DNA of 20,000 nucleotides from an uncultured virus (IMG/VR IMGVR_UViG_3300008448_000047) (IMGVR_UViG_3300008448_000047), one strand, 5' to 3'; shown: positions 1,102 through 20,000, counted from the first letter of the stretch. The notes: generated by a model from the letters alone, not told the origin. Program-made: numbers and translations.

Positions 1102-1165
1102 AGATAGATAAGTATTAACTAGCCCGGTGCGCCGGAGTCATATTCGCCGAACAAAGGAACGAACA

Positions 1166-3319: not shown

Positions 3320-3336
3320 TACCCGACAAGGAGAAT

Positions 3337-3365
3337 GGCCCGGGTGTAACAGCCCGGGCCTTTTT
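3337..3365 (+). terminator. intrinsic terminator between convergent genes
   Basis: GGCCCGGG...CCCGGGCC stem followed by TTTTT. Confidence 0.8.
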
Positions 3366-3650
3366 CTATTTATTGGTTATGTCGCCAATTTGTCGCGCAA
3401 TCTGCCCTACAGAAGGGAGATAGCTAGATATACCGGCGTTAGATACTTCTCCATCCTTTGCTGATATAGCTTTGGAGTACCCAATCCGTCGGGAAGACTC
3501 AACTTCTTCTAGGCGATTAAGATAGAACTTTAAACTGTTGGTTATGGATTCAATTTCGCGCTTAAGGAAAGCTATTTCTCTTTCTAGTGCGTCTACTTCA
3601 TCTCTTATTTGGCCCGATATGTCGTCAGAGCCACGCTTTGATTTTCTCAT
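3366..3650 (-). CDS. hypothetical coiled-coil protein (94 aa)
   Basis: Start overlaps the upstream stop. Heptad-like run IRDEVDALEREIAFLKREIESI. Confidence 0.65.
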   Translation of the reverse strand: MRKSKRGSDDISGQIRDEVDALEREIAFLKREIESITNSLKFYLNRLEEVESSRRIGYSKAISAKDGEVSNAGISSYLPSVGQIARQIGDITNK

Positions 3651-4003
3651 TTATAACCTTTGACTACTCCGTCAGGAATGACAGCAAACCTGCATTTTCC
3701 ATTAGATTCTACGGGCATTGCCAGGATTTTGCAAGAGCTTCCGCCCTCGTACAGTACGCAGTTTGAGCACTTAACCCCGATTGAAGCTTTCTGGTTTTCA
3801 GCGGCGCTTTTATATCCGGCCCATATGCCTTTGCCGTCTTGGTTGAATTTGCCGTGCCTTTTGGCAATTGAAACCAAAGCTTCAGCCAGTTCTTTTTCTT
3901 CTTGCTGGAGTACGGGTGCTTGCTCTGTGACCTTGACTATCCTTATATTGCCTCCGCTCATTAGGGATGCAATGATGTTCATAATTGCGTTGCTATCTTT
4001 CAT
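3647..4003 (-). CDS. HiPIP-like four-cysteine protein
   Basis: KCSNCVLYEGGSSCKILAMPVESNGKC resembles the HiPIP cysteine spacing. The ATG at 4003 overlaps the nuclease stop (ATGA). Confidence 0.6.
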   Translation of the reverse strand: MKDSNAIMNIIASLMSGGNIRIVKVTEQAPVLQQEEKELAEALVSIAKRHGKFNQDGKGIWAGYKSAAENQKASIGVKCSNCVLYEGGSSCKILAMPVESNGKCRFAVIPDGVVKGYK

Positions 4004-4398
4004 TTGAATTCCGTCCAAGTCTTATTGCCGACGCCATAATATTCTCTCGCTAGTCCTGATTGAATTATGTCGTTATTCAAGCATGCTGTAGCTGGGTCAT
4101 TTACGTCTTCAGAGCTGTATATTTTTGCCAAGATTCTGCCGTATTTATCGTTTTTGTCTGGGATTGTGTTCACATATACCCATTTATGACTTGTTAGCCA
4201 GTCGGAGGTAAAGTCCTTGGCTTTAACACCAAGAGCTTTTTCTTCTTTGTTTGATGTTCTCGACTCTGGGGTATTAACGCCATACAGACGAACACGTATT
4301 TTGTGGTGTATATCAAACCCTAGGTCTATACGCAAATCTAGCGTGTCACCGTCTATTACCTTAAGTACTTCGGCACCGTACCAATATCTTTCGTTCAT
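4000..4398 (-). CDS. thermonuclease (SNase-like) family protein
   Basis: Motifs VIDGDTL, VRLYGVNTPE, DKYGRILA and GLAREY. The ATG at 4398 lies 6 nt after an extended -10. Confidence 0.9.
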   Translation of the reverse strand: MNERYWYGAEVLKVIDGDTLDLRIDLGFDIHHKIRVRLYGVNTPESRTSNKEEKALGVKAKDFTSDWLTSHKWVYVNTIPDKNDKYGRILAKIYSSEDVNDPATACLNNDIIQSGLAREYYGVGNKTWTEFK

Positions 4399-4404
4399 AT
4401 AGCA

Positions 4405-4413
4405 ATTATCCCA
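4405..4413 (-). promoter_or_regulatory. extended -10 promoter (leaderless transcript)
   Basis: TGG-GATAAT, then 6 nt, then ATG. No SD sequence. Lies immediately past the capsid terminator. Confidence 0.55.
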
Positions 4414-4420
4414 CAAAAGC

Positions 4421-4446
4421 AAAACCCCCGGGTTTTATCCCGGGGG
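4421..4446 (-). terminator. intrinsic terminator after the major capsid gene
   Basis: CCCCCGGG / CCCGGGGG stem with a 6-nt loop, followed by TTTT on the minus strand. Confidence 0.85.
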
Positions 4447-4470: not shown

Positions 4471-5814
4471 TTAGGCAGTTGGTGCTGCGTCGAAGTCAAC
4501 CTTGACGAATGCTTCTGGACGCTTCACTGCAAGAGCAAGACGCTGCTCAGCAAGAACCACAATTGCGTTGCGCACGAAGAAGTCTGCGTGCTGCTCTGAA
4601 ATGCGGATGCTTGCCTGCTCGCGGTCGTACAACTGTGCGCCGGTGCCGAAAGCTCCGACGAGAGCTGTGCCCTCTGCGATTGCTGGGGTGTCGATAACTG
4701 GCATGCGCCAGATACGCTGTTCTCCACCAAGAGCTACCGAGACAGCAACGAGGTACTGACCCTGGTCGTCCTTTGCGAGTTCCATGTCTTCCCAGTCGTT
4801 CGGGTGCAAGACCACGCCTGTTGGCTCGTAGTACGAGAGGAATGACAGTGTCGCAGCACGACGGATTGCGTCAGCCTTGTTGTCAGCAACTGGCAAGTGA
4901 GCACCTTCGGACCATGCGTACTCCTGGATGCCCGTGGTCTGAAGAACACCCTGAAGGTTCTCGCCGGTGCCGTCACCGTTAAGAATTTGAGAGTCCTCAA
5001 GAAGACGGAGACCGTACATGAGTTCGTTGTCGATAATGCTGCGGAGCTGTGGCTCGTCTGCAAGAACGTTGCGGTGTGCAGCTTCCCAGTGTGCAAGTGT
5101 GCGTACTGGGGCTTGCTCACCGACGAACACCATGCTCGACTGTGGCTTAGCACCAAAAGCAGTATTGCCACCATTGCGCTCAGCAACTGAAGCAGCAGCA
5201 TTTGTGCCGCCGCCGGCGCTTGTGAAACCAAGCTGGCGGAAGTACTCAATGACAGCAGCTGTCGTTGTGCGGGTTGGGAAGAGGTCACGAACGCGCTTGG
5301 TACGTGTTGGCGGGGTGACGATTGGGTCACGCTGAATGGTACCGAACGAACCAGGTGTTCCTGATGGAAGTGCTGAGTAAACGTCCTTGACGCCGTAGTT
5401 TGTCAGTGACAAACCAGCCTGCCAAGGCGAAATCATGTTTGCACCATTCTTGCCACCCTGAAGTGACTTGAACTCTGGGGATTCGGTGAACATTTGACCA
5501 ATTGACTTGAAGCCCATATCGCGAGCTGCTTCGTATAGTGCATTTTCTGCACTCTTGGCGTTGTATTCAACTGCGACAGAGTTACCCTCTTCGCGGCTCC
5601 ATCCGTCAACATCCTTCATCTGCTCTAGGCCATCGATGAGGCTGCGGATTTCACGGATGTCGCGCATGTTTGAATCGAATGCGGACTTTTGTTCTGAAGA
5701 CACAACAACTGTGCCATCTTCAACCTTGAACGAATCAGCAATTGACTTGTTCTCGGCCATTTTTGTTCTGAGTGCGCCTTGTAGTTCGCGTACTCTTGCT
5801 TCGTCGTAAGACAT
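4471..5814 (-). CDS. major capsid protein, HK97 fold, with N-terminal helical delta/scaffold domain
   Basis: Motifs VRTLAHW, QLRSIIDNEL..GL, QILNGDGTGENLQGVL, VLHPNDW, KDDQGQYL and FVRNAIVVLAEQRLALAVKRPEAFVK. RBS AAGGAG. Downstream terminator. Confidence 0.95.
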   Translation of the reverse strand: MSYDEARVRELQGALRTKMAENKSIADSFKVEDGTVVVSSEQKSAFDSNMRDIREIRSLIDGLEQMKDVDGWSREEGNSVAVEYNAKSAENALYEAARDMGFKSIGQMFTESPEFKSLQGGKNGANMISPWQAGLSLTNYGVKDVYSALPSGTPGSFGTIQRDPIVTPPTRTKRVRDLFPTRTTTAAVIEYFRQLGFTSAGGGTNAAASVAERNGGNTAFGAKPQSSMVFVGEQAPVRTLAHWEAAHRNVLADEPQLRSIIDNELMYGLRLLEDSQILNGDGTGENLQGVLQTTGIQEYAWSEGAHLPVADNKADAIRRAATLSFLSYYEPTGVVLHPNDWEDMELAKDDQGQYLVAVSVALGGEQRIWRMPVIDTPAIAEGTALVGAFGTGAQLYDREQASIRISEQHADFFVRNAIVVLAEQRLALAVKRPEAFVKVDFDAAPTA

Positions 5815-5957: not shown

Positions 5958-6143
5958 TTAATTTGGAACTTGTAAAGCGTCGCCAGATTTAGCTAAATCG
6001 TTGGCAGCAAAGCGCATTCGCCAGTACATGGCGATGTTTTCTGGAGTTTGTTTGACACCATACTTAGACATATCTTCATCTCGTATTGCAGCAAGATAAA
6101 TCTTTTCAATGTCATCGGAAAGAATGTTGTTTTCCATCGTCAT
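5958..6143 (-). CDS. hypothetical protein (61 aa)
   Basis: ATGA overlap with the stop of the giant ORF. AAGG upstream. Confidence 0.6.
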   Translation of the reverse strand: MTMENNILSDDIEKIYLAAIRDEDMSKYGVKQTPENIAMYWRMRFAANDLAKSGDALQVPN

Positions 6144-9100
6144 GCACCTTTTCTTAAAATGTTTGTGACGTTGCCTGTTGTCATTCTGGCTACGTTCACT
6201 CCGTCAGGAATTGGCATTGTGTTGATTATTTCTGCAATTTCTTTATGGGTCAAGTTCGGTCTTGATTTAATCAAACGCTGTACTTCTCTAATTCGTTTGT
6301 CAACAAATTTTTGTGTCAAGCTTTTTTTAATTTTTCTAGCCGTTTGTTCTTTGTTGGGAAGGCGGTAGCTCTCGAGAATCCCAGCCTTACGCATGCGCGT
6401 CAACCGTGCTGTCCAATCTGTACGGTCCATAAGTATGTCGTACTCGTTCCGTAGCGCCTCTAGGGCGTCGGCGACCTGTAGACCGCGACCGTAAACATCC
6501 AGTATGGCGTCCTGTACGTCTTCCTTGGAGTATCTATCTTTGTCGTAGCGCGTAGCCATACTCCCGGATATTTGACCGCCAGAGTTTTCGGGAAGACGGC
6601 GCACAAACTGGTTTACGAACCTGGCTCCCTCTTCTGAATACCGCTGCTGCCTTAAATCGACGTTGTAACGCTTAATTGCTTCAGACAGAAGGGTGCTGGC
6701 AATGCCCTTACGTTTTGAATCTGGAGAAATAAAGATGTTTACATTTCCTTTTTTCTCAAGAGGAAGGTCTTGAGGGTAGTGGTAAACAATTCCTTTTAAT
6801 ATTCCTTTTTCATCTCTCCACAGAAGACAGTCAACCCATTGTCCAGGCTGGAGACCGTTGCCCGTTCCTTTGAAATACGAAAATCCGGGAGGACCTTTTT
6901 TGTCAAACTGAGAAGCTTGCCCCTTGAATGGCCATGGCTCTCCACCAAGACTTTCTTTTACGTCTTTCCATGGTTTGCCTCTATATTTAGGAGCGTTTCG
7001 CATCTCTCTTCTGCTGTTGAAAGACTCCCAGCCTTCTGCTGGTTGAGTTATTCGACCAGATATTGAGCCACCCATTCTGCCGGAAACGGATACGGGTTCA
7101 ACAGCACGTCTGTAGCGAATTCTTGTATCAGGAAGTGTTACGCCATCGTCTTCCCATGCCAATAGCTCTTCGGGGGTAACGCCTTCACCAAACTTGTCTT
7201 TGCGCGACTTTTTGATAAGCGCCCTAATTTCATCCCGGGTTTTTCTTTCAGAATCGCCTAACTTTCCTCTAAAAATATCGTTTACTGATTCAGAAAGTTT
7301 TTTCAGAAATTTGTTTTTTGCATCCTCGTCGTACCAATAGTAACCGTTGCGCGGCCAGTGTGATGCTCCAAAGAGTCCTTCTGGGCTGTAATTATCTCCG
7401 TACAAAGATATTTCTGATATGCCCAATTCTCTGTATATTTCTTCGTTTCGCGCGTTTAGTGCGGTTCCTATACCGAGTCCCTGTTGTTGAAATTTTACTA
7501 CCATCCCCTTGTGTTCTGCTTCTGCTGAATTGTCGTCAAAGTACAAAACCCTGTCAAAAGATGCAAGGCTATTGTTATCGTTAAGTTGACTTGGATTGGT
7601 CCCTAAATGTTTGGGGAAAACCAGTCCAGATATTTCTATGCGCGTTTTGTTTGCTGGGATGGTATAGCCACCCCTGTCATAACCTCCGTCGCCGGTGTTG
7701 GTTACCTTCACGTCTATAGGAATTACATTGAACTCATTGCCTCTGTTTGTTTTTGTTCTGTCTATGTAGTCTTTATTCCCAACTATTACACCGGTAAAAG
7801 CTTCCTTCATTGCTTTTTTTATTTCGCTGTATTTGCCTTTATTTGCAATAAGCTGTCTTGCTTTTCTGGCTGCAGACCTCTCTCTGCCTGAAATAGCTTG
7901 ATTTTCTGCAGATTTCTTTATACCGGCACTTGACATTCTTCCGGATATGTCACCGTTTTGTGCTGCCCAGATAATGATGTCCATCGGGAGCTCTTCATTT
8001 TCAAATGCGTCCATTGCTCCAGGTGTCTTGTTCAAAACATCTTTAACAATTGATTGCTGTGCTGGGGTAAGTGATTTCCATGTTGACTCAAGCGCGTCAT
8101 CTGATACAAAGTCATCAATTTTCTTTTCAGGGGAAATCAGAGGTCTTGATGAAGGTTGTACCGGTGGGCGATATTGCATGTTGGGGTCAATTACGCCAGT
8201 TGTCACGACGTTGAATATTCTGTCTTTTGACATGTCGGAGCTGCTAGCTATATCTTCTATCGACTGGCCGGCATCGAATGACTCTATTGCCTTTCCTTCT
8301 GGGCTTTCTGCCGCATATCGGTTTTGGAACAGACGCGCAGTTGGGCGTCCACCTCGCTTAACTTTCTGAGTAGCTTCATCAAAATCAGCATAGACATATG
8401 CGTCTTCATGCTTAATTTCAAGAGGGCTTGAAGCTGATGGCTTGGAAGCAAGAAGGCGACGAGACGATATATCTGTCGAATCCCATAGGTAAAATTCGTC
8501 TGCTGCTTTTGCAACAGATGGCATTATTTGCCTATTTCTTCCCATTACAGCGCTGTTGAAGTGTCCAGGAAGGCTACGTGGGTCTGTTAAGGAGCGGCGT
8601 TCTAGTGATTCCGCAAGCGCATCTGGCGTTGCCGTGTTGTAGTGCATGACAATGTCGTATCCGGCTGACCTGGCTGCTTGCAGAGTTTCAAAACCAGAGT
8701 TGTATTGTCCAGTTGAGTCGTATACAACGTCAAGACCCTGAGATATCGCTTCTTGCAGTGCAAGGTCCGCTATTACACGTGATTCTTCGTGAACAGCATT
8801 CGCCCACATTGGGTTTCCGGCAGCATGAAGTGCTCTTGCCTCGGGTAGAAGGGTTTTTATTTCATCAGCATCAACATGGAGCGCAAACCCTGGTGTTGGG
8901 ATATTGTGAGCGCCGGTTTTTCTGTCTGTAGTCTTGCCTGAACCAGCTGGCCCACCAACTGAAACAAATTTACGCTTTCCTCCAGTAGGGCGTTGTACTC
9001 CTGCTACCAATGCATCAATAATGGGGCGATAAACGTTGTCGTAGCGATACTTGCTGACATTTGACTTTCCGCCAAATGTTGTGGTTACTTCAACAGATGG

Positions 9101-12100
9101 TTCGCCAATGTTGGCTTTGTAAACATCAAACGTAAGTTTTGGATGCTGTTTCGTAAGTTCAGATTGGTCATATGAACTAGGAAGATTTTGCAATCCAAGA
9201 CGTTTTTGAACGCTGTCATCAAGAGGAGGGAACGACGATGACATGCGACCCGATATTGAACCAGGAGAAGAGCTCATTGATGGGCCACGCCCACCACCGG
9301 TCATTCTCCTGATTAGCTCAGCTAGCACTTCTTCGTCAGTTGCATCCGGACCAAGGTCACGCCTAACTTGTTGTTCTACGAAGTAGGCATTAGCAGGGCT
9401 ACCTGAAGTTGGATTAAATGGCCCACGAGGTCCAGAAGATGGGCCAGGTCCTCCTTGTCCATCGTCATCAATCTCACCGTCACCACCAAGGTCTCGCGTA
9501 CCTCTACCCTCACCCCATAGAGCACTTCCTGCTGGGCGTGATGGCTGTATGCCGTGGCGAGTCCAGTCTGACCATTCGTCAAATTCTTTTTCGACCCATT
9601 GGCGTTGCGGGAACACGGTTGACTGAGTAAACGGAGCGGTAGGCCAGTCGTCTCTATTTGCGTTATGCCGCGGCCATAGGCGACCCTTATCGTCATATAA
9701 ATATAGGTCTTGGTCTGTGTATTGACTTACGTCAATGTCATCGTCAGCAATGTCTGTGTTATTTGGTCTCGCCGAAGAAGATTGGCGTGAAGTTCGTCCT
9801 GCTCGCCATGAATCGTATTGGTTTCTTAACCTGCTATTGCTTAGTGTTTCCCATGCGAATCCAAGTTCTTTGAATTGCTCAGTAGCATCTGGAGAATTGT
9901 TAACGTCTGGGTGAAGCACGCGAGATTTAGCTCTAAAGGCTTTTTTTAGCTCTTCGTCTGTTGCTGTTTCCGAAACTCCAATTATGTCGTATAGGTCTCT
10001 AGATTGAGCCCACTGTCTCGGGTTTGACATTCTCCCGCTAATGGAATTGTTTTCCTCGACAGCATTTAGGAATTCAAACATCTCATTATCGCCAAGCGGC
10101 ATGTAGAAGCCGGCATTTATATATGCCTGGCGACCCTTTGGCGTGTTCGTTTTGTATGTTTCCATCAGCTCTGGGATGTTCCTATGGCGCTGCCATTCAG
10201 GACTGTCTGGCTGCCACATTCTCCATGGCCAAGATGCGGATTCAATCATTTCATGCATGTCGAGAGAAAAATCAATCATTTCTCTCTTCATCCACAAATC
10301 TTCCATCAAAGATTTGCGAGCTTTATTCATTGCTCGCTTAGCAATTTCTTCTCTATCTCCTGAAAACCGTGAGCCTGACTTTCGTGCGGCATCCACGACA
10401 GCCTCTAGGACAGATTCATCTATTGTCCTTTTTATGTAAGCACCGAGCGCCGCCATTTTGTCTATGCCTTCTTGCCCTCCAAATACTGGATGCATATAAG
10501 CCGACGTAGATGAAAGATTCTGTATTTGGTCTCTCATTTCCTGGCGAATATCTTTTACTTTTTCGCGCAAAGCAGACATAGGGGATGTCATGTAAGAACG
10601 TTTTTCTGCGTTAAATTTGTTAGCGCTCTTTGCTACGTCTGACATTTTGCCAGATATTGCCCTAGTTGCCTTCGGTGGATTTTTTTCGAACAAGAATGAC
10701 GGAGAAATCCACTCTTTAGGTATCGCCTTATATATGTTGGCGTCAAAGTTTCTTGAAAGAGGAGAAACTCCGGATTCCATATGCATTTTACGCATTGCCG
10801 AGTTATACATGCGTATTGCAGCTTTCTTCGGCATGTTTGTTCTTTCGGAGAATTGGAATATATTTTCTCCGTCCGACAAGCGACGCATCATTTGAATTTC
10901 ACCAGCGTTCAATGCTGAACCAAACTGCGAAATTGATTGTTTGATTGCTGCTCTCTCTAGAGGAGCATTTGAATTTTTCCATCTGGCGTATCGCTTTACT
11001 ATGCCATCGACCATTTTTTCGGTCATGCCAAGGTCTTCTGCTATGCGGTTTAGTGGCTGCTTGCCATGAACATAACGCATAAAAATATCTTGTTCTGCAA
11101 ATAAGGATTCTGGATTTGAAGACCATGCACCGGCAGACTTAAACATTTTCGGGTTGCGAGCTTTTAGGTTGTCTATTATCGATGCTTCTACTTCCCCGTA
11201 TCGCTCCACCGACATACCCATAAATTTTGCTACAGAGGCACGCGATGCTCCATGTAGTCGCTGCACCATCGCCGCTTTTTCTGCTCCAGAAATAAAAGAA
11301 TCATTCATAATTGCTTTGCGCAATGCTGCATTTATGGCCGGCTCTCTATTGCCGATTGAAGACTCTACTTTTACAACAACATCCATTGCTTCCGTAAAAG
11401 ATATTTTGTTCTTTTTTGCCAAGTCTCTAATTGAGCCTCCGCTGGATATCATCTCGTCAAACATTTTTCGCTCTGAAGCTGAAACATTGTCTGAAGTTTT
11501 AGACAACTGTATTCCGCTATAGAGAACGTAACGATTTATATCCTCTTCACTGACGCCATTTTCTTGGCGCAGCTTATTTTTTATTTCGTCAGACGACATG
11601 CCTCTTAAGTGCATGTCGTTCATGTTGTTTTCAAACCCTTCACCCATGCGTCCAGATATTGACGGACCAAAATTTGAACCAACTCTGGATAGACGGTTTT
11701 CACGGGTTCTTTCTACGTCCGCGGCAATAGATTCTGGAGTTACCTCTCTGCCCATTAGCCTCATGCGGGATATTGAGCCGAGCCTCATCATGTCGTCTGA
11801 TGGAGCTAGTTCCCAAGCGGAATATGAACCAAGGTTTTTTTCGTCAAAAAGTTTTATCTTGTCGGCTTTTGCTCTGCCTTTATTCAGTTCTTTGCGCCAG
11901 CTGTTTGAAATTTCAATTAGTTCTTTATTCCTAGCACGCGTTGCTCTTTCAACACGGTCTAAACCTGTTCTTAAACTTTCGTAGTCAGGACCATAGTTTG
12001 CCGGGTCATCAACTTCCAGAGCCATAGCGTTCTTAATCCACGCGACATGTCCGAACCCGATTGGAAGTTTTCCGTCCGCTATATCCTGAACAGGGAACCA

Positions 12101-15100
12101 TTGCGCTCTCAGCGCGTCATCTCCAGCCTTAAAGGCAGCGTCTGGAGATACAAACAACGCAGTACCACTGACCTCTACGCCTTTTGTAAAGCGCACATCC
12201 CAGTCTGGTGCTGTTATTGTTCCTATCTGCTTAACGCGCGCATCTGTCGGACTTACTTTTAGTCCTACTTCCTCTTCTAGTTCACGCAATGCTGTCTCTA
12301 GTGCGGTTTCGCCAGGGTCAGCAAACCCTCCAGGGAGAACCCATGCACCGGTATCGTCTTTGTGTGGACCGAACGCTCTTTGTATAAGAAGAACCATTAG
12401 CGCCCCCGTATCAGGGTCGCGACTAAATATTGCCGTATCTGACGCTTTCTGTGGGACGCCCTTATCAAGGTCTAGTGCATATTGGTTAATTTTGCCTTCA
12501 ATAGTGTCGTAAACAGTGCTGCGTATGTCGCTTATCTTGTGTGAGTCCAGCGTCATAAAATCACGCAATTCATTACTCACGCCGTTAGCAATTAGCTCCT
12601 GAATCTCAGGCATTTGCTCCCATGGACGAGGATAATTTTTAGATATAACGCTTGTTTCTGCGCCCTTGGCTTTTTCACTGGCCAATAAACCTAATTCATC
12701 TGATTTGAAAGGTCCGTCGATAACATTTTTTGTATCTGCATCTACAAGATAAAGACCTTCTACTGGCTTAAAAACGCTGTCTTTCAGAGTTATTTGTTCA
12801 AGCTTGTAGTTCTGCTTTTTCTTGCCCCTGAAAGGCGAGGTCATCCGGAAACTATTTCTAGCTGTTAAATATTCTCGCTGCCATCTCTCAGGGTTGTATC
12901 TTGCAACTCTGCTAGCGTTGCTTAGCGTTCTCCTCAATCCCATCTGACCAGAAATCGTTGGTCGCGTTGCATCCATAGACGAACGGAATGCATTTATTAT
13001 TGCTTCGTCTGGGGAGACGGTGGAAGCACCGCGTGTTCTGTTCGGCAGCGGTGCAGTCACATCTTTTGATACGGCAACGACAAAGTCTGGATTTGAGTAG
13101 AGGGCTCTAAAGTAGTCTTTCTCCACCGGTGATAGATGTTTAAAGTAGTCAACGTTCTCGGGGTTCATTAATGCAGCAAATGAATGCTCATTAGATGCTC
13201 CAAGGAACTTCCCACTTCCTCCAGAAAATGCCGTCCTCATTGCTCTTGTAATTGGCATTTCGTCAGAATCGTAGCCAAGCAGCATTGATGAAGGTTTGTT
13301 TTTGCGGCGTCCCGAAACAAGTACGCGAGCTGCTTTCCGTGAATATTCATCGTAAAGGTTCGGCCCACCGCTTCGCATGAAGCCAGATATTCCCATGCCT
13401 CGACCCTCTTGCCGCGCCCCCTCTATGGTTCTTTTTACTTCACGAAGCTGCTGGACTCGAGAATCTGCTGTTCTTGTTGCATACGCAGTTGTTCCAGCAA
13501 GACCTTCGTTTCCGTATTTACGTGCGTGAAGCTGATGAGCCTTTAGTGTTCCCTGCAGCGGACCTACATATTCGCGAGTAATTTCACCATTTTCGTTTCG
13601 CTCGATGTAACCCCAGTTTTGTCTCCACCAGCGATATATGCGGTTAGCATGGCGTGCCCGACTTATTTGTGTTGGGTCATAACCTTCATCAAACGCCTGA
13701 GGCCATCCCCTCGTGTCGTCGTCAGTTACTTCGCCAGTGTATGGCTCCTGATAGAGGGCTTTTGCTCTACGGCTTGGGCTGTCAGTTATGGTCCCATCTG
13801 GTTCCATAAATATTGCGCGACGAGCGGTTGGAACAGGATATGACTCAGCAAGGTCAAGAGCGGCTTTTCTTAACCGAGCATCATGTCCGCGTTCAATTCT
13901 GTATGCCTGGTCAGCAAACCATTTCTTTCTTTCTGTTTCTTCAATCAGACCATCAATAGAGCTAATGATTTGTTGTGGGCTTTGGCCGCTAAATAGACGG
14001 GTTAGGTCGTCACGCAAGCGCTCAAGCTGGCTTCTCCTAAACGCCTCTTGACGCGCTGTATCAGAATTGAAAGCCTGGTCTGCTGCATTGAGAAGTTTTG
14101 TTACATCTGAAGTTTTGATGTTGTTATCTATTGCGTACTGTGTTGCTGCAGCTTTAACCAAGTCACGCAAATCAATTGGCTGAGGAGGCCTATTTGTGTC
14201 CGGCTGGTCTGCACCAAAAATAATCAGTTCATGGCTTATTTCTTGCGGAGTTCTTCCTGATTGAAGAAGGTTCCAAACCTGCTCTCGAGCTTTGCGAGAA
14301 TCTTGTCCAGTTCCCGTAACGTAAAGCTCGCGGGCTTCCTTTGCAGCCTCTACAAACTGGTTCTGTAGCTGTAGTGCACCCCAGTCGTCATAAACACCAA
14401 GTGCTGGGTCATACTGGCGACTTGCAGTTGCATAAGAGCCTTTTGACGATGCTTGTTTTCCTTGTTTATTTAGAATTCGCTGGAACATGCGCAATGCAGA
14501 GTCCCAGTTGATGTTCCTTGGTATAAAAGGTATGCCCTTGCGAAGTCTTGGTCCGCCCGGGTCGGAAAGTCCAACTCCATCACCTTGTATTCCACCAAGG
14601 TTTGGTGTTGGCATCTGTCCTGAGCTTGATGGGGTCGGCGGCATTGTTCCCATTGCTTGTCCGACAAAATAATCAATTAATTCGGGCGGGAGGTCAATGT
14701 ATCTTTGGTCGATATGACCGTTGTGTGGGTCTGTCCACTCACTTGGCTTTAGTATTTCGAGAAGGTCAGCTTGAAACTGTTTCGGCGCATACTTGAGAAT
14801 CAATTCTTCTAGTTCGTCAAGTGGGATTAGGGTTACGCCGTCGTCTTCGACGTTGTCCGGGTGTTGAGCCCACGTTGCTGGGTCGTCGGTTACGCCAAGC
14901 TCTTCGGGGGAACCGTGTTCTGTGTTCCATACCCAATCTTCATCGAGAACACCAAACTCATCACGTATTGGGCGCTCAGGCTGCGGTTCTTCAAACTCTT
15001 CGTCTTCTTCTGGCTCTTGAATCCATCCTGCCTCAAGACCAACCTGTGTCCATTGCTGATACTCTGCATTCAAAGCGTCTATGGCGTCTTTAGCTTCTAG

Positions 15101-17923
15101 TTCTCCGCCTTCTCTATAGACGCGTTCTGCTTCTGCGGCCCTCTCCTGTATGTCTTCTGACCAGTTCTCCCATTCAGGCTTGGTGATTGGACCCCATTCT
15201 GGGTGGAAGCCAATGTCATTGTTTTCCAACAAAAACATGATGTAATCATCTGCTGTTACTGGGTCTTCAAAACTAAGCGCCCTACGTCCGCCAGCCCATC
15301 TTGGCATTTGCCTCGGGTCGTCTAAAGGCTGCAACGGTATAGACGAATCTAAAGGCTTTCCAGCTTCGTAGTCAGCTATTAGTTTTGCTAGTTCTTCATC
15401 TAGGGCATCAAGCGCATTTTGTGTTGCCTGCTGTTGAGCCGGGGTCATGGTTCCCTGAGCAACACCAGCGGCAAGTTTTTCTTGAAGAACTCTTCTTCTT
15501 GCTTCCAGGCTCATCGCATCGTCGCCGGCCATATATGCAAGATTGTCCAGCAGGCGCAGCGGTGAATTTTCTTGGCCCGGTTGAGAAATTCTCTGGGCAA
15601 CATCAATTACACCAGCAGCATCGAGCTTTGTTGGGTCGACCATCTCTGGCAGTATGTAGCGATTAAACAGTTCTTCAATGTCTTCATTAGAGAGTACGTC
15701 AACATCAAGACGCGACAAAGTCCCATTCGGTGCCATTTTTTTGTACTCATCAAGGAAGCTTCTAACGAGAGGACGTTTGATTTGTGCTGCTGCAGCAACT
15801 TCAGACGGAAGAAGCGGAAGTTCATCTTTTCTTGGAGGTTTAATGGCTACGTTCGCTGCTTTGAGCGCGTCATTATGACCCTTGAACAGCTTGTCTAAAT
15901 CTTGGTCAGATAGGTCAAGGATTGCTCTTGCTGCAGTTGCGGCATCAGGATACTTGGCAATATGTGTCTGCATTTCAGGTGATAAATTAACCCTTGCAGT
16001 ACTTAGGGCTTCATCGAAGAGGAACCTCTTACGCCACTGACCGGCTTTCCACTGTGCTTTTTCTTGGTTTGTCCACTGTGAGTCTGGGCCAGACGGTGTT
16101 GCCATGCGTCCTGATATCCCACCCATGCGGCCGGAAATAGCGTCAAACCTTTCAAACGCCCTAGCTGTTGCCTCTATGTCTCTGCTTATTCTTCCAACGC
16201 GTCGCTCTCCACGACGTTCTGCTCGTTCGGCCGTGGAAGTAATTCTTCTAGCTGGCTGTATGGCTGTTCTCGGAGTCTTGTATCTACTAACGAAACCATC
16301 GGGAAGATTGTTTGCTCGGGCAAAAGTCTTAGTCATTTCTCCTTGTTTCGTGCGCGACGGCACAAAACCAAGAACTACATCTGACTTTCCGTCTGGGTCA
16401 AGACCATTTGACACATTGTTAAATAGGTCGTTTACCGCCCTGTCGTTTAGTCTTTGGCGCTTTAAGTCATTGTCTTTAAACGCCCATGAAACAAGTGAGC
16501 CCCAGTTGTTAACTTTTCCTCTAGAAACCGCTTCCATTGCCTCGTCTTTAACAGCTCCAAAACTGTTAACAGCAGCAAAAAGTTTGGGGTTATTTTTGCG
16601 AAAAGCACTGATGCGCTTTTTGCGTCGAGACTTTTGTCTTTCTACTGATTCACGAACGTCGTTAGCAAAAAGTCCGTTCTGTTTTGCAAATTCACCGTAA
16701 GAAAGACCGGAAGCTTTTTGCGTATCGAGCAACCTCTGGGCATCGTCTTCTGTCCATTTATCAGCATCTTCTGGGAGCCAATTAAGTTTAGATTCGCGTA
16801 CTTTTTCAGCCTTTGGTTTTGGCAATCTTTCTGGTCGCTGGAGCAACTGCCTACGAGGCTGAGGTTTTTCTTCCGGTGTTGGCGCTTGCGTCCTTTGAGG
16901 CCGCATTCTTGGCACCCACCGACTCGGTCTTCCGCCCGGGGTTGGGTCAATTACACCGCGACCACGGTTAATTGTGGGAATTCCTTCAAGAACTAAGCCG
17001 TCTAGGTCTTCGTCTCTCGCTGTTGCGGGATTCATATCCTGTCCGGTTGCTCCCAATCTAGGACGCAACGCACCAGGAGTTCTAAGAGTTCTTCTGGAAG
17101 AACGACGAGATAATGCCTTTTCCTCTATCAGACCATCGATTGATTTTGTTTCGATGCCGTCATAAAACTCAACGTGTTTTACGCCCCTAACTGAACGTTT
17201 GCGTGCCGTTCTTGCCGCATCCGTATTAGGGACAAACTGTTCTCCGCTGCGAGAACCCTGTATTTTCTTCCTGTTGGTAGCCGCTCTTTGCGCCGGTGTC
17301 AGCTTTGACCACGCTTTAGCTGGCAAGTATCTTCTGGTGTAGCTACCTCTGCGAGCTTTTTTACCGTCGCTCGTGGTCCATTTTTCTTTAGTCCACGAAG
17401 AAAGCGAACGTTGCGTTTTGCTTTTTCCGCCAGTCTTGTATCCGCCACCTGCTTTTTTATACGCCTGAGCGAGCATTTGCGCTTTTCTTGCAGACCACTG
17501 TCCGGGGGCTCCACCCTCAGAGCCAGCCATAATTCGCTGCTTGATTCTCTCGCGCAATTCCGGCTTTGTGTAGTTATTTTTTTTGCTTGCTTTCGTTTCG
17601 ACAGCTTCTTCTAAAGTCTTCTTTGCAAGCTTGCCTCGGCCGGTGATTTGCCTGATATCTCTTTCCAGCTGCTGGCGTCGGAACCTACGACCAGAAACAC
17701 CTATCCCGCTATATTTTCTGTAGTCGGACTCATTGGTGCATGGCATCCATGACTCTCCGCCTGAGCGGTTTAGATATCTTCTAATCCCAATACATCCAAG
17801 ACGTCGCGCAGCAACTCTGGCCGATTCTGGGTCAGAGAAAACGTCCGGGTCGGTAGTGCGCACTCTGCGCGGAGCCCCAAGAACGTCTTTTTGCTCAATG
17901 TCTATGTTCTGCGTATCAGTCAT
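6140..17923 (-). CDS. giant multi-domain (polyvalent) protein / putative polyprotein, 3927 aa
   Basis: Uninterrupted 11.8-kb ORF with several recognisable domains separated by ISGxM motifs. Same strand as, and upstream of, the capsid gene. Confidence 0.92.
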   Translation of the reverse strand: MTDTQNIDIEQKDVLGAPRRVRTTDPDVFSDPESARVAARRLGCIGIRRYLNRSGGESWMPCTNESDYRKYSGIGVSGRRFRRQQLERDIRQITGRGKLAKKTLEEAVETKASKKNNYTKPELRERIKQRIMAGSEGGAPGQWSARKAQMLAQAYKKAGGGYKTGGKSKTQRSLSSWTKEKWTTSDGKKARRGSYTRRYLPAKAWSKLTPAQRAATNRKKIQGSRSGEQFVPNTDAARTARKRSVRGVKHVEFYDGIETKSIDGLIEEKALSRRSSRRTLRTPGALRPRLGATGQDMNPATARDEDLDGLVLEGIPTINRGRGVIDPTPGGRPSRWVPRMRPQRTQAPTPEEKPQPRRQLLQRPERLPKPKAEKVRESKLNWLPEDADKWTEDDAQRLLDTQKASGLSYGEFAKQNGLFANDVRESVERQKSRRKKRISAFRKNNPKLFAAVNSFGAVKDEAMEAVSRGKVNNWGSLVSWAFKDNDLKRQRLNDRAVNDLFNNVSNGLDPDGKSDVVLGFVPSRTKQGEMTKTFARANNLPDGFVSRYKTPRTAIQPARRITSTAERAERRGERRVGRISRDIEATARAFERFDAISGRMGGISGRMATPSGPDSQWTNQEKAQWKAGQWRKRFLFDEALSTARVNLSPEMQTHIAKYPDAATAARAILDLSDQDLDKLFKGHNDALKAANVAIKPPRKDELPLLPSEVAAAAQIKRPLVRSFLDEYKKMAPNGTLSRLDVDVLSNEDIEELFNRYILPEMVDPTKLDAAGVIDVAQRISQPGQENSPLRLLDNLAYMAGDDAMSLEARRRVLQEKLAAGVAQGTMTPAQQQATQNALDALDEELAKLIADYEAGKPLDSSIPLQPLDDPRQMPRWAGGRRALSFEDPVTADDYIMFLLENNDIGFHPEWGPITKPEWENWSEDIQERAAEAERVYREGGELEAKDAIDALNAEYQQWTQVGLEAGWIQEPEEDEEFEEPQPERPIRDEFGVLDEDWVWNTEHGSPEELGVTDDPATWAQHPDNVEDDGVTLIPLDELEELILKYAPKQFQADLLEILKPSEWTDPHNGHIDQRYIDLPPELIDYFVGQAMGTMPPTPSSSGQMPTPNLGGIQGDGVGLSDPGGPRLRKGIPFIPRNINWDSALRMFQRILNKQGKQASSKGSYATASRQYDPALGVYDDWGALQLQNQFVEAAKEARELYVTGTGQDSRKAREQVWNLLQSGRTPQEISHELIIFGADQPDTNRPPQPIDLRDLVKAAATQYAIDNNIKTSDVTKLLNAADQAFNSDTARQEAFRRSQLERLRDDLTRLFSGQSPQQIISSIDGLIEETERKKWFADQAYRIERGHDARLRKAALDLAESYPVPTARRAIFMEPDGTITDSPSRRAKALYQEPYTGEVTDDDTRGWPQAFDEGYDPTQISRARHANRIYRWWRQNWGYIERNENGEITREYVGPLQGTLKAHQLHARKYGNEGLAGTTAYATRTADSRVQQLREVKRTIEGARQEGRGMGISGFMRSGGPNLYDEYSRKAARVLVSGRRKNKPSSMLLGYDSDEMPITRAMRTAFSGGSGKFLGASNEHSFAALMNPENVDYFKHLSPVEKDYFRALYSNPDFVVAVSKDVTAPLPNRTRGASTVSPDEAIINAFRSSMDATRPTISGQMGLRRTLSNASRVARYNPERWQREYLTARNSFRMTSPFRGKKKQNYKLEQITLKDSVFKPVEGLYLVDADTKNVIDGPFKSDELGLLASEKAKGAETSVISKNYPRPWEQMPEIQELIANGVSNELRDFMTLDSHKISDIRSTVYDTIEGKINQYALDLDKGVPQKASDTAIFSRDPDTGALMVLLIQRAFGPHKDDTGAWVLPGGFADPGETALETALRELEEEVGLKVSPTDARVKQIGTITAPDWDVRFTKGVEVSGTALFVSPDAAFKAGDDALRAQWFPVQDIADGKLPIGFGHVAWIKNAMALEVDDPANYGPDYESLRTGLDRVERATRARNKELIEISNSWRKELNKGRAKADKIKLFDEKNLGSYSAWELAPSDDMMRLGSISRMRLMGREVTPESIAADVERTRENRLSRVGSNFGPSISGRMGEGFENNMNDMHLRGMSSDEIKNKLRQENGVSEEDINRYVLYSGIQLSKTSDNVSASERKMFDEMISSGGSIRDLAKKNKISFTEAMDVVVKVESSIGNREPAINAALRKAIMNDSFISGAEKAAMVQRLHGASRASVAKFMGMSVERYGEVEASIIDNLKARNPKMFKSAGAWSSNPESLFAEQDIFMRYVHGKQPLNRIAEDLGMTEKMVDGIVKRYARWKNSNAPLERAAIKQSISQFGSALNAGEIQMMRRLSDGENIFQFSERTNMPKKAAIRMYNSAMRKMHMESGVSPLSRNFDANIYKAIPKEWISPSFLFEKNPPKATRAISGKMSDVAKSANKFNAEKRSYMTSPMSALREKVKDIRQEMRDQIQNLSSTSAYMHPVFGGQEGIDKMAALGAYIKRTIDESVLEAVVDAARKSGSRFSGDREEIAKRAMNKARKSLMEDLWMKREMIDFSLDMHEMIESASWPWRMWQPDSPEWQRHRNIPELMETYKTNTPKGRQAYINAGFYMPLGDNEMFEFLNAVEENNSISGRMSNPRQWAQSRDLYDIIGVSETATDEELKKAFRAKSRVLHPDVNNSPDATEQFKELGFAWETLSNSRLRNQYDSWRAGRTSRQSSSARPNNTDIADDDIDVSQYTDQDLYLYDDKGRLWPRHNANRDDWPTAPFTQSTVFPQRQWVEKEFDEWSDWTRHGIQPSRPAGSALWGEGRGTRDLGGDGEIDDDGQGGPGPSSGPRGPFNPTSGSPANAYFVEQQVRRDLGPDATDEEVLAELIRRMTGGGRGPSMSSSPGSISGRMSSSFPPLDDSVQKRLGLQNLPSSYDQSELTKQHPKLTFDVYKANIGEPSVEVTTTFGGKSNVSKYRYDNVYRPIIDALVAGVQRPTGGKRKFVSVGGPAGSGKTTDRKTGAHNIPTPGFALHVDADEIKTLLPEARALHAAGNPMWANAVHEESRVIADLALQEAISQGLDVVYDSTGQYNSGFETLQAARSAGYDIVMHYNTATPDALAESLERRSLTDPRSLPGHFNSAVMGRNRQIMPSVAKAADEFYLWDSTDISSRRLLASKPSASSPLEIKHEDAYVYADFDEATQKVKRGGRPTARLFQNRYAAESPEGKAIESFDAGQSIEDIASSSDMSKDRIFNVVTTGVIDPNMQYRPPVQPSSRPLISPEKKIDDFVSDDALESTWKSLTPAQQSIVKDVLNKTPGAMDAFENEELPMDIIIWAAQNGDISGRMSSAGIKKSAENQAISGRERSAARKARQLIANKGKYSEIKKAMKEAFTGVIVGNKDYIDRTKTNRGNEFNVIPIDVKVTNTGDGGYDRGGYTIPANKTRIEISGLVFPKHLGTNPSQLNDNNSLASFDRVLYFDDNSAEAEHKGMVVKFQQQGLGIGTALNARNEEIYRELGISEISLYGDNYSPEGLFGASHWPRNGYYWYDEDAKNKFLKKLSESVNDIFRGKLGDSERKTRDEIRALIKKSRKDKFGEGVTPEELLAWEDDGVTLPDTRIRYRRAVEPVSVSGRMGGSISGRITQPAEGWESFNSRREMRNAPKYRGKPWKDVKESLGGEPWPFKGQASQFDKKGPPGFSYFKGTGNGLQPGQWVDCLLWRDEKGILKGIVYHYPQDLPLEKKGNVNIFISPDSKRKGIASTLLSEAIKRYNVDLRQQRYSEEGARFVNQFVRRLPENSGGQISGSMATRYDKDRYSKEDVQDAILDVYGRGLQVADALEALRNEYDILMDRTDWTARLTRMRKAGILESYRLPNKEQTARKIKKSLTQKFVDKRIREVQRLIKSRPNLTHKEIAEIINTMPIPDGVNVARMTTGNVTNILRKGA
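6610..6830 (-). other. GNAT acetyltransferase domain 2 of the giant ORF
   Basis: IFISPDSKRKGIASTLL...YSEEGARF. Confidence 0.8.
7330..7570 (-). other. GNAT-like acetyltransferase domain 1 of the giant ORF
   Basis: Motif A QQQGLGIGTAL, followed by YRELGISEISL...GASHWPRNGY. Confidence 0.65.
8440..8980 (-). other. zeta-toxin-like P-loop kinase domain of the giant ORF
   Basis: GGPAGSGKT, then VDADEIKTLLPE, VHEES..IA and DVVYDSTG. Confidence 0.85.
9812..9997 (-). other. DnaJ (J) domain of the giant ORF
   Basis: DLYDIIGVSETATDEELKKAFR.....LHPDVN....ATEQFKEL..AWETLSN...RNQYD. HPD is at 9905-9913. Confidence 0.95.
10658..11644 (-). other. tandem HTH (sigma70 region 4-like) module of the giant ORF
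   Basis: Repeats SIRDLAKKNKISFTEA, GASRASVAKFMGMSVER, QPLNRIAEDLGMTEKMV and GENIFQFSERTNMPKKAA..MYNSAMRKM. Confidence 0.6.
12037..12450 (-). other. Nudix hydrolase domain of the giant ORF
   Basis: Intact Nudix box G-FADPG-E-TALETAL-RE-L-EEE-VGL, preceded by VLLIQR...W.LPGG and followed by AGDDA..A.WF. Confidence 0.92.
17198..17575 (-). other. DUF5872-like basic domain of the giant ORF
   Basis: YTKPELRERIK..I.AG..GG.PGQWSARKAQMLA..YKKAGGGY...SL..WTKEKW.T...RYLP.KAW..L...QFVPNT. Confidence 0.7.
17729..17842 (-). other. DUF3721-like domain of the giant ORF
   Basis: F.DPESARVAARRLGC.G......G.SWMPC pattern, recalled from memory of the family. Confidence 0.55.
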
Positions 17924-17943
17924 GTGTTTTGTAAAGATTTCTT

Positions 17944-18150
17944 CTACTCTGGTTTAGTATCTGCGATAAATTCGTCAACGACTGTCCAAACTGGATTAGA
18001 GGCAACAACGGACGATAAGTTAATTATTCCACCTTTTTCGCCGTTCCTGAGTATGTATCCAAAGTAGACAGGAGAATTTCCAACCATGACGGAATGGGTT
18101 TTAAACATTTTTTGTCTCCCACCTGGCCCGGTGGCAAATAGCTCAATCAC
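17944..18150 (-). CDS. hypothetical protein (68 aa)
   Basis: GTGA overlap with the upstream stop. GGTGAGG SD sequence. Confidence 0.6.
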   Translation of the reverse strand: MIELFATGPGGRQKMFKTHSVMVGNSPVYFGYILRNGEKGGIINLSSVVASNPVWTVVDEFIADTKPE

Positions 18151-20000
18151 GGCCTCACCACCTCTTCGCCAGCATTTGTTATATCACTGAGCAGAACAAC
18201 GGGAATGTTAAGAGATTCTGCAATTTTGGATATCTGAATAAATCCTTCATAATCCATAATGTCATCGGGAAATTCATCTGCTGCTTCCTCATAACCATCG
18301 TCGTCCTGCATCAGAATCATCCCATCAGGACCAAATGGAGGAAAATCAATATCCCCCCATCTAAAGTCGGTGTCGTCAACGACAATGTATTGAATGTCTT
18401 CCAGAGTTATCTTTGAATGAATTTGAGCTTCTGCATATTTGGACCTACCTATGGCACTCTTGTCGTCTGCGCTATTTGATACATCTCGGCCACGCTCGAT
18501 AAGAGAGATAATGTCGGCTGCCGAAACCCTTGTAAAGGGGGTGTCAGAAGTAAGCCTTTGTCCAAAAAGCCCATGCTGTGACGGGTTCTTTAACGTTGAA
18601 GCTGTTGACATCAAGGACAGTGAGTCAATTTCTGTCCAAGTAACCTTTTCATTCATGTCGGGGTTTAGGACAATTCTTATGGGTCCGTACTGGTTCGTGT
18701 TTTTTATTGCATCTTCTGTCATTCCGCCGACGTGCAAAATTCCGTAAGCAGGCCTCTTCCCCTTATATGAGGGGAGGATTCCGAACATCGCAAATTCTGC
18801 TGCGGCCCGAGCTGAAGTGTTGACATTGCCTTGGCTGGTGTTTGTTTCAAATAGCGTTTTAAACTCGTTATCAGCAAACATATTTAAAACAGCATTAATA
18901 GGCATGGCCACAGATACTTGCGACTCTTTCATTAGGTTTTCGTATCCAATATCGTCTATCGACTCATAATCGCTAGGAGATGTAGAAAGCAGGCCAGCGC
19001 CTATGGCAGAGTTCCACCAGTCAAGTGTGTCTTGGTTCGCCCTACGTCTATCGCTAATACCCATACGTTGCATGTTGTTGATTTTTAACCCTGCGTGTAT
19101 GGCCCGCATTGCTAGTCCGCTGGCTATGTCATTTACTTCTTGACTTAGGTCGCTTGTCATACTTCCCCCTGAACCAAATCCAGGAACACGAGAAATAAGG
19201 CCACGAAGCACTTGCATTGTGTTGCCGCCACGACCGTCAGGGTCTTCACGCGGTATGTCAGAGAAGCGGGTCATTGTGTCGGCCATGTCTCCTACGAAAT
19301 TTCTTATGAAGTCCCTATGACCGTCGTCTAGTTCAAAATCTTCACCAAAATCACCCAAGGCCATTATCTTGGAAACAGTTGCTCCAATCCATCCTCCGAG
19401 CCAACCTCTGAATTCCGATGCTGCATCGCGACCAGCGGTATCTTTAGAGCCCATGTAGAAGTCTGGATTTGTTTGTAGGTAACTAGCAAACCCAAGCTCC
19501 AATACCTTGTCCGTCAGCCCATTGACTAATTCTTTTATTTCTGGGTGATACGAACCTGGTACGAGCCACTCCAGTGGTGCGCCGGTATTGCGCGCATCCA
19601 AGACGTTGTCTACAGGGTTAGGCCTAACGTCGTACCCTTCATGTTTCGATGTGAAATGGTTCCCTAAATGCTCTGGCGTGTCGGGGTCGTATTCAAGGTC
19701 TTTCGCTTCTATGTCATTTTCTGGGGTATTTCCCATTTTCCCAGAAATTTGTCCTCTAGCTATTCTGTTGCTGAGTTTTCTCTGCAACATCGGCTTTGCT
19801 GCGGACATCCGCATTGAGGAATCCTGAACAAATGAATCAATAAAATTTTTAGAATCTGCGTCACTTACTACGCTCACATCAGCATTTTCGCTTATTAGTT
19901 TTTCTATAAATTCGTCAGCTAATTCTTCAATTAGGGACACTGTTTCGTCATCAACGGAGGGCATTAAATCTATTTGGGAGAAATTATCTCCTCTCCCCCA
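18147..20000 (-). CDS. C-terminal part of a probably larger protein with a DUF3626-like domain (likely 5'-truncated by the window edge)
   Basis: The frame stays open from 19964 to 20000 (WGRGDNFSQIDL before MPSV). It contains ISGKMG. The domain at about 18378-18917 reads FKTLFETNTSQG...R...E..MFG...RPAYGIL...QYG...VL...TWTEIDSL...YAEAQIH..ITLEDI. Confidence 0.8.
   Translation of the reverse strand, partial: WGRGDNFSQIDLMPSVDDETVSLIEELADEFIEKLISENADVSVVSDADSKNFIDSFVQDSSMRMSAAKPMLQRKLSNRIARGQISGKMGNTPENDIEAKDLEYDPDTPEHLGNHFTSKHEGYDVRPNPVDNVLDARNTGAPLEWLVPGSYHPEIKELVNGLTDKVLELGFASYLQTNPDFYMGSKDTAGRDAASEFRGWLGGWIGATVSKIMALGDFGEDFELDDGHRDFIRNFVGDMADTMTRFSDIPREDPDGRGGNTMQVLRGLISRVPGFGSGGSMTSDLSQEVNDIASGLAMRAIHAGLKINNMQRMGISDRRRANQDTLDWWNSAIGAGLLSTSPSDYESIDDIGYENLMKESQVSVAMPINAVLNMFADNEFKTLFETNTSQGNVNTSARAAAEFAMFGILPSYKGKRPAYGILHVGGMTEDAIKNTNQYGPIRIVLNPDMNEKVTWTEIDSLSLMSTASTLKNPSQHGLFGQRLTSDTPFTRVSAADIISLIERGRDVSNSADDKSAIGRSKYAEAQIHSKITLEDIQYIVVDDTDFRWGDIDFPPFGPDGMILMQDDDGYEEAADEFPDDIMDYEGFIQISKIAESLNIPVVLLSDITNAGEEVVRP

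Follow-up and report, generated by a model that had tools for sequence, protein, structure and literature searches.

A recurrent five-residue motif between the modules of a giant head-block protein of an uncultured phage is a candidate cleavage mark

The uncultured virus IMGVR_UViG_3300008448_000047 of IMG/VR encodes a giant protein of 3927 amino acids, denoted g44, in which the short sequence [IV]SGxM occurs 11 times. We analyzed a window of 20,000 nucleotides, corresponding to the minus strand of positions 52750-72749 of the 105,678-bp record, where the giant open reading frame (ORF) occupies positions 6140-17923 on the minus strand, as do all its parts described below. The element is a short linear motif, I-S-G-x-M followed by Gly, Ser or Ala, which is placed in flexible linkers between modules and is restricted to five proteins of the head gene block. 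We consider it probable that the motif is a cleavage site, whichever of two candidate enzymes of the phage would read it. The more specific proposal, that the giant is a polyprotein cut most likely by the S78 prohead protease encoded at the start of the same block, is one to which we give slightly less than even weight.

Distribution of the motif in the record

A simple gene call of the record gave 117 ORFs, and the motif was found in g36 (1723 amino acids, four copies; L002:6857-12028, that is record positions 34857-40028, outside the window), g39 (686 amino acids, one copy; L002:12997-15057), g40 (2450 amino acids, one copy; L003:59-7411), g42 (1267 amino acids, two copies) and the giant g44. 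These are 19 copies in 10,053 amino acids, compared with none in the remaining 112 ORFs, which total 23,035 amino acids (Fisher p = 1.5e-10). When all six frames of the record were scanned in stop-to-stop frames of at least 30 amino acids, 21 hits were obtained; 19 were those in the five large ORFs, all on one strand, and the other two were in frames of 63 and 38 amino acids overlapping genes of the opposite strand. For the giant alone, 0.056 copies were expected from composition, and 2000 shuffled sequences contained 0.05 copies on average and two at most.

The initial annotation, made from the window, had placed the 11 copies at residues 596, 603, 1512, 1657, 2089, 2423, 2628, 2890, 3326, 3613 and 3785 of the giant, which our scan matched exactly, and the near-copies ISGRE (7880-7894), ISGRI (7049-7063) and SSGQM (14612-14626) were also at the coordinates it gave. 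It had further noted one copy in the upstream protein, g42. This is ISGKM at 19734-19748, in the C-terminal 617 residues that the window covers (18147-20000, minus strand); the complete g42, which has a DUF3626 domain, contains two. The scope of a single ORF, on the other hand, was too narrow, as the motif is present in four further proteins.

Among the 19 copies, the first position is Ile in 18 and Val in one, Ser, Gly and Met are present in all, and the variable position is Arg in 13. The motif has no acidic residue. The residue following Met is Gly in nine copies, Ser in six, Ala in two and Arg in two, so that a small residue is present in 17 of the 19; for the 12 copies of the window, the previously stated proportion of 11 was reproduced. 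The codons vary synonymously from copy to copy (ATT or ATA for Ile, TCC, TCA, TCT, TCG or AGC for Ser, and GGC, GGA, GGT or GGG for Gly), and the copies share neither a common nucleotide word nor a sequence resembling a ribosome-binding site. The synonymous variation indicates selection at the level of the peptide, and it rules out a repeat or recombination site acting on DNA. Internal translation starts at the motif ATG were also considered and rejected, because no Shine-Dalgarno-like sequence is found upstream and the Met is missing from the LSSG and FAS variants of related phages described below.

Position between modules and conservation among relatives

In Pfam, the envelopes found in the giant are DUF3721 (residues 34-65), DUF5872 (121-216), NUDIX (1831-1950), DnaJ (2643-2704), Zeta_toxin (2979-3134) and a weak GNAT (3723-3754), and none of them includes a motif copy, in agreement with the earlier observation that the copies avoid recognizable domains. 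NUDIX, DnaJ and Zeta_toxin are above the Pfam cut-offs; the helix-turn-helix (HTH) and GNAT matches are weak. From the N-terminus, the first module (residues 1-331; 16931-17923), which has weak DUF3721 and DUF5872 matches and nearly invariant columns at 4-331, is the best-conserved part among giant relatives. It is followed by the tandem ISGRM-GG-ISGRM (residues 596 and 603; 16103-16138), by ISGFM (residue 1512; 13376-13390) and by ISGQM (residue 1657; 12941-12955). The NUDIX domain (12074-12433) lies between this last copy and ISGRM at residue 2089 (11645-11659), after which a module with an HTH array (residues 2094-2422; 10658-11644; weak HTH_28, Sigma70_r3 and HTH_23 matches) extends up to ISGKM at residue 2423 (10643-10657). 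Two further ISGRM copies stand just ahead of domains, that of residue 2628 (10028-10042) before the J domain (9812-9997) and that of residue 2890 (9242-9256) before the zeta-toxin-like P-loop kinase (8522-8989). A module of 288 residues with a weak GNAT match (residues 3325-3612; 7088-7951) opens with ISGRM at residue 3326 and is directly followed by VSGRM-GGS-ISGRI (residue 3613, with the near-copy at 3621; 7049-7087). The last copy is ISGSM at residue 3785 (6557-6571), and the C-terminal module beyond it varies among orthologues.

The copies had been described as bracketing Nudix, HTH-array, DnaJ, zeta kinase, two GNAT and HTH modules one by one. This was confirmed for the first four, while the two GNAT matches are weak (E = 0.099 and 0.0027) and the C-terminal HTH module has no Pfam support. 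The giant would be a head-module protein in which Nudix, HTH-array, J-domain, zeta-type kinase, GNAT-like and other modules are joined in one chain. It conforms to what has been published as 'polyvalent proteins' (Iyer, Burroughs, Anand, de Souza and Aravind 2017; PMC5512222), a class that the initial annotation had not recognized.

Whether the motif lies in disordered linkers had been raised as a check by AlphaFold, and two AlphaFold2 models were built from alignments of giant relatives. Model 1 covers residues 2440-3639 with a mean predicted local distance difference test (pLDDT) score of 63.5, and model 2 covers residues 1480-2460 with a mean of 72.3. The copies at 1512, 1657, 2089, 2423, 2628 and 2890 are entirely within segments of pLDDT below 50 between confident domains. 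Considering that such segments make up 20% of the well-modelled residues, the finding of six of the seven copies of well-modelled regions within them is unlikely by chance; from linker composition alone, 0.015 copies would be expected against the six observed. The four longest low-confidence linkers of model 2 contain one copy each. Copy 3326 adjoins a segment of pLDDT below 50, and copy 3613 falls within a poorly modelled module because that module is unique to this giant. A near-copy, ISGAE at residue 2211, is part of a helix modelled with confidence in the HTH array, and it probably arose by chance. A Foldseek search with model 1 confirmed the J domain and the kinase, the latter through matches to zeta, PezT and AvrRxo1.

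To place the motif among related phages, we used 318 relatives of the capsid protein in IMG/VR, of which 80 loci were kept, and 48 non-self relatives of the giant with lengths of 2170-5070 amino acids. With Phi for a hydrophobic residue, the pattern Phi[ST]G.M occurs 3-10 times in 43 of the 48 giant relatives and is the most enriched pattern in most of them, in the forms ISG.M, VSG.M (often GVSG.M), LSG.M, ITG.M, IAG.M and LTG.M. The other five lack it, and among them FAS.S is present ten times in P0047, GLAS six times in P0048 and GFAS four times in P0050. Clades further removed have (R/G)LSSG, FSSG, LTGA[MILV] or VTGKM in the large ORFs that precede their capsid gene. The core common to the clade variants is a hydrophobic residue, then Ser, Thr or Ala, then Gly or Ser, often with Gly before it. 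Over the same-strand ORFs of the 80 loci, which are not independent as several are nearly identical, Phi[ST]G.M was found 83 times upstream and once downstream of the capsid gene (9 and 6 after shuffling), and PhiSSG 190 times upstream and 26 times downstream (38 and 8 after shuffling). No recurrent motif was found in the clade of record G005, whose capsid and protease genes are about 70-77% identical. The same holds for the closest cultured relatives, Gordonia phage ChisanaKitsune and Brevibacterium phage Cantare, in which the capsid protein shares 48% identity. Therefore, no proteome of a cultured phage can serve as a stand-in.

In an alignment of nine orthologues that are 33-84% identical, all copies but 3326 correspond to copies in the majority of sequences, whereas their flanks differ in both length and sequence, and Ser, Ala and Thr replace one another at the same motif site. 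In a wider alignment of 39 giants with identities down to 21%, the flanking Gly, the motif Gly and the Met of the 1512 site are invariant, and at the 1657 site the Gly is invariant and the Met nearly so (at least 90%); only 23 of the 981 columns of this alignment are invariant.

The sole insertion or deletion block of at least 40 columns among the nine orthologues is the 288-residue module at 3325-3612, which is present in this giant alone and is bounded by a motif copy at its start and another directly after it; a 67%-identical copy of the module was found in one other locus. Modules 1, 2, 4 (Nudix) and 8 (kinase) are present in at least 42 of the 48 relatives and the others in 1-20, and their order can differ. 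The motif also delimits exchangeable module cassettes.

Candidate enzymes and competing readings

In the order of the gene block, a portal-MuF fusion (g31) is followed by the S78 protease (g32), the acidic PepSY protein g34, the motif-bearing ORFs and then the HK97-type capsid gene. The protease g32 (785 amino acids; L002:2568-4925) matches Peptidase_S78 (E = 3.5e-11), DUF6321 and the head maturation protease family phrog_80 (E = 3.7e-28). It was the only Pfam-recognized peptidase among the ORFs scanned, which were 17 head-block ORFs, the giant and its neighbour, the other ORFs of the window and 65 further ORFs of at least 100 amino acids, with g17 and ORFs shorter than 100 amino acids left out. 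In related phages, the protease polypeptide itself carries canonical copies just past DUF6321 (NP-ISGRM-GDLA, NP-ITGKM-GMLA and NP-IAGRM-GALA) and a second copy near residues 615-780, and some have three or four LSGAM copies; by analogy, these recall the self-processing of prohead proteases. Adenain had been offered as a further parallel, for which no support was obtained: no Peptidase_C5 (PF00770) match was found at E ≤ 1 in the record, which is 71% complete.

Several side observations concern g32 and its relatives. Beyond the S78 and DUF6321 regions, g32 contains a Cys-rich CGCGGSCGG...CQCGGSCGGSCS stretch and a proline-rich unit of about 60 amino acids (MPRTDEPIEIPEEIPVPEPTRIPKPNPDRTPSRP...) in two tandem copies. 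A search of the PDB with the sequence of the protease N-terminus gave nothing useful. In L111, L112, L124, L146, L149, L150 and G001 (L167/L168), a giant ORF of 2391-2984 amino acids begins with the S78 domain; assemblin-like peptidases of polyvalent proteins are always C-terminal according to Iyer et al. (PMC5512222).

According to the scheme that we propose, a protease encoded by the phage, most likely the S78 enzyme, would recognize the motif and cut at it. As the head matures, this enzyme would divide about 10,000 amino acids of the five proteins into some two dozen fragments of about 5 to 170 kDa. These would remain inside the capsid and be passed into the host together with the DNA, related phages using their own variants built on the hydrophobic-S/T/A-G/S core. 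The packaging of the giant in the virion and its delivery to the host are what we infer from gene position only. Regarding the scissile bond, a cut after the tiny residue (Phi-S-G, then x-M) would recall the hydrophobic-x-small rule of assemblin-type proteases, a cut before the hydrophobic residue would be typical of a zincin, and a cut after Met would fit the small residue that comes next.

The initial annotation had taken the motif for a cleavage site or a docking tag in a head-module giant. The part describing a functional linear motif in linkers is borne out by the restriction to the head block, the low-confidence linkers, the conservation, the bounded module, the clade variants and the presence of a protease gene; these do not separate a motif that is cut from one that is docked, and cleavage is what we infer from them. 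It had also left the phage proteases to be identified. One was found in g32, and a second candidate, the HExxH region of g36, had been missed.

The following points weigh against cleavage by the S78 protease. The copy in g32 of this genome is degenerate (SSGRM), and a clade lacking the motif still has the segment xxGR[MV]..LA at this site (NPMAGRV...), so the motif-like position in the protease polypeptide may be structural. The S78 catalytic domain is 75-93% identical across motif classes, including the clade without a recurrent motif; the differences in the motif between clades thus have no obvious counterpart in S78. The capsid protein has no [IV]SG.M at the boundary of its delta-like domain, but only KSIGQMF. 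The HExxH domain of g36 is, as judged from sequence, a second candidate enzyme, and the record is partial, with a completeness of 71% estimated by CheckV. When the complex between the S78 domain (alignment A3, residues 1-190) and a 45-residue linker (giant residues 2868-2912) was predicted, the score was 0.00, which carries no weight either way.

The capsid protein itself is of the HK97 type with an N-terminal delta-like domain (4471-5814, minus strand) and contains no canonical motif. KSIGQMF (residues 103-109; 5488-5508) is situated where the delta-like domain ends and is similar to the motif in its G-x-M, and we take it to align with the cleavage position of HK97 gp5 (K, then SLGS). All clades retain it whatever their motif, and it shows no covariation with the motif class. 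Covariation was also sought in QLSSRE, which precedes the N-arm in LSSG clades, but QLTSRE is present in I[ST]GxM clades too and the idea was dropped.

Cleavage by a zincin-like metallopeptidase within g36 (HETGHVVD at residue 473), either in the head or after injection as predicted for the metallopeptidases (MPTases) of polyvalent proteins, is a reading that we judge unlikely. A metallopeptidase preferring a hydrophobic P1' residue would cut just before the Ile, Val, Leu or Phe of the motif, where Gly often precedes, and this hydrophobic residue is the most widely shared feature of the variants. Each of the 21 sequences in the alignment of g36 with its homologues retains the HExxH, which is also present in proteins of the LSSG clade. 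The domain is far more variable between clades than S78, so that it could co-evolve with the motif. In PMC5512222, such domains are predicted to release modules, and one phage-type MPTase has an Asp three residues past HEXXH, as in g36. Look-alikes of the region in the Atlas carry Peptidase_M90, ATLF or Mx1 in 13-34% of members with scores of 0.90-0.92, which are weak and below the mark for recognition. However, the N-terminal region of g36 has no Pfam peptidase match at E ≤ 5 and the record has no match to PF18818, no pattern was seen between variants of the HExxH region and motif classes, and processing by such MPTases is itself a prediction. In an LSSG-clade record both enzyme types are present, the S78 domain being fused to the N-terminus of a 2984-residue protein, and relatives without the motif also have S78 proteins and, in the same block, HExxH proteins. 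As both occur in clades with and without the motif, co-occurrence cannot choose between the two enzymes. A search for g36-like sequences in five related records found nothing, though its first-look filter may be insensitive.

Alternatively, the motif could be a docking or packaging tag that is never cut and through which the long proteins are anchored repeatedly along their length to the inner HK97-fold shell, the delta domain or the portal. Such a tag would resemble the cargo-loading peptides of encapsulins, which are short and rich in Gly, Ser, Leu and Ile, or the capsid-targeting sequences of T4. That the motif is confined to the head block, lies in linkers, is conserved and varies by clade would fit any reader acting in trans, and the N-terminal region of the capsid protein is highly conserved. 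We nevertheless hold this reading to be rather doubtful and a step below the zincin, given that known tags of this kind are terminal and single in each protein and not internal in up to 11 copies at module boundaries, some of them in tandem. A cassette bounded by two copies is more naturally a released unit, and in 17 of the 19 copies Met is followed by a small residue, which resembles a P1' preference.

An element without any reader in trans, such as a cassette junction for folding, spacing or module recombination or another modification site, is very improbable: modules are indeed gained, lost and reordered between relatives with the motif at their junctions, but the DNA at the copies is not conserved as a recombination sequence would be, and a passive junction would neither preserve the five residues nearly unchanged in disordered segments of proteins that share only 21-30% identity nor change in concert within a genome.

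Taken all together, we tentatively propose, with less confidence than for S78 cleavage of the giant as such, that a large group of uncultured phages encoding whiB, probably actinophages, delivers early effectors as polyproteins packaged in the head. A clade-specific mark of five residues would be read by the HK97-type prohead protease or by a packaged zincin to release about two dozen enzymes and DNA-binding modules, and the same mark would define swappable cassettes.

Gene block, host and comparison with known systems

In g36, an RNase T-type exonuclease (residues 838-1018) is flanked by motif copies at 788 and 1072. Neither g39 nor g40 matched a family in Pfam or PHROG, and a search of the PDB with the g40 sequence (2450 amino acids) gave nothing; an ORF close to g39 in size (about 680 amino acids) recurs upstream of the capsid gene in most of the distant relatives. 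The gene between the protease and g36, g34 (L002:5092-6582), specifies a strongly acidic product in which Met, Asp and Glu abound. This protein contains a PepSY domain (E = 3.6e-6) and the sequence IGGMMGMGGG, and it could be scaffold-like or a regulator of the protease. The giant (residues 296-331; 16931-17038) and g42 (residues 67-102) have a stretch of 36-50 amino acids in common with 62-78% identity and no other similarity. This stretch may be a targeting or docking element, and in g42 the near-copy VAGRMG comes next. A gene resembling staphylococcal nuclease (4000-4422, minus strand; SNase E = 3.8e-14; endonuclease family phrog_452) lies immediately past the capsid gene on the same strand. 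At the end of the tail block, a protein of 994 amino acids (L004:14-2998, minus strand) has ten stretches of collagen triple-helix repeats (E = 4.5e-77) and is probably a fibre.

When the window was searched for near-identical DNA among GenBank phages, no match was found. The record contains two WhiB genes (L170:2145-2483 and L170:16207-16773, both on the minus strand), the window an Rpf-type transglycosylase with an SLT domain (1127-2368, plus strand), and the nearest cultured capsid proteins are from phages of Gordonia and Brevibacterium. Based on these sequences, the host is likely actinobacterial; WhiB has been used as a marker of actinophages (PMC10914622).

If the motif is a cleavage site, it would show how polyvalent proteins become working parts, which is only predicted in the paper defining them, and it would provide a substrate consensus for an HK97-type (S78) prohead protease that is readable from genomes. 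It would also explain why about 30 kb, roughly a third of the record, is given to head-carried effectors exchanged as cassettes. Tailed double-stranded DNA phages would then use a polyprotein strategy in which effectors are swapped without a new packaging signal by means of a portable cleavage or packaging tag. The motif would moreover offer a simple rule by which annotation could divide giant metagenomic ORFs, of which there are hundreds, into their functional units, and it suggests a short tag that might serve to load and release foreign proteins in phage heads.

No description of the motif was found in the literature searched, which did not include subscription journals or the FTP supplement of PMC5512222. 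What appears new is the five-residue mark between polyvalent-protein modules, its clade variants, its link to an S78-type head module and the motif-bounded cassettes. Motif-directed processing of head-carried proteins is already established for T4-like and phiKZ-like phages, with motifs ending in Glu and mainly for propeptide removal.

Among known systems, polyvalent proteins are the closest. As described in PMC5512222, they are multi-domain proteins of phages and conjugative elements, with 2 to 15 effector-type domains, encoded near portal and MuF genes, and they are predicted to be packaged, delivered with DNA and processed by a built-in MPTase or C-terminal assemblin-like domains. The giant is alike in carrying several unrelated effector-type domains in one polypeptide, of which the zeta-like kinase, NUDIX and GNAT are named there, and its block is flanked by the portal-MuF fusion, the S78 protease and the capsid gene. 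It differs in that Pfam recognizes no peptidase domain in it, the HExxH being only in the neighbour g36, and in the five-residue motif between its modules; in the portion of PMC5512222 available to us no recurrent inter-domain motif is seen, and the word 'linker' is missing from the main text.

The comparison with T4 and phiKZ made in the initial annotation stands as an analogy and not as membership, as there is no Glu at P1 in the present motif. The prohead proteases of T4 (gp21), phiKZ (gp175) and SPN3US (gp245) cut many head and ejection proteins and themselves at a short motif that differs between phage groups, and the cut proteins are ejected into the host, according to PMC5694885, which gives the Glu-ending motifs AXE for SPN3US and S-x-E for phiKZ. 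As in those phages, the prohead protease gene here is in the same module as its putative substrates, and a short motif is common to several head-module proteins and rare elsewhere. The cleavage motif of T4 is L/I-x-E. By contrast, the protease here belongs to the S78 (HK97-type) family, and the sites are between up to 11 modules of one protein, whereas the cuts in those phages mostly remove N-terminal propeptides.

The maturation and release sites of herpesvirus assemblin have the sequence (V/L/I)-x-A, then S. This order of a hydrophobic residue, any residue and a tiny residue is analogous to Phi-[STA]-[GS], and the own sites of assemblin, past the catalytic domain and near the C-terminus, are comparable with the two tail copies in the protease proteins of related phages; the sequence and the host are different, and the Met two residues past the tiny residue has no counterpart. 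Encapsulin cargo-loading peptides differ as terminal single tags from the internal multiple copies found here. The polyproteins of picornaviruses and potyviruses are similar in that one ORF encodes many units with a repeated protease site between them, although they comprise the replication proteins of eukaryotic RNA viruses, while those described here would be head-carried effectors of a tailed double-stranded DNA phage.

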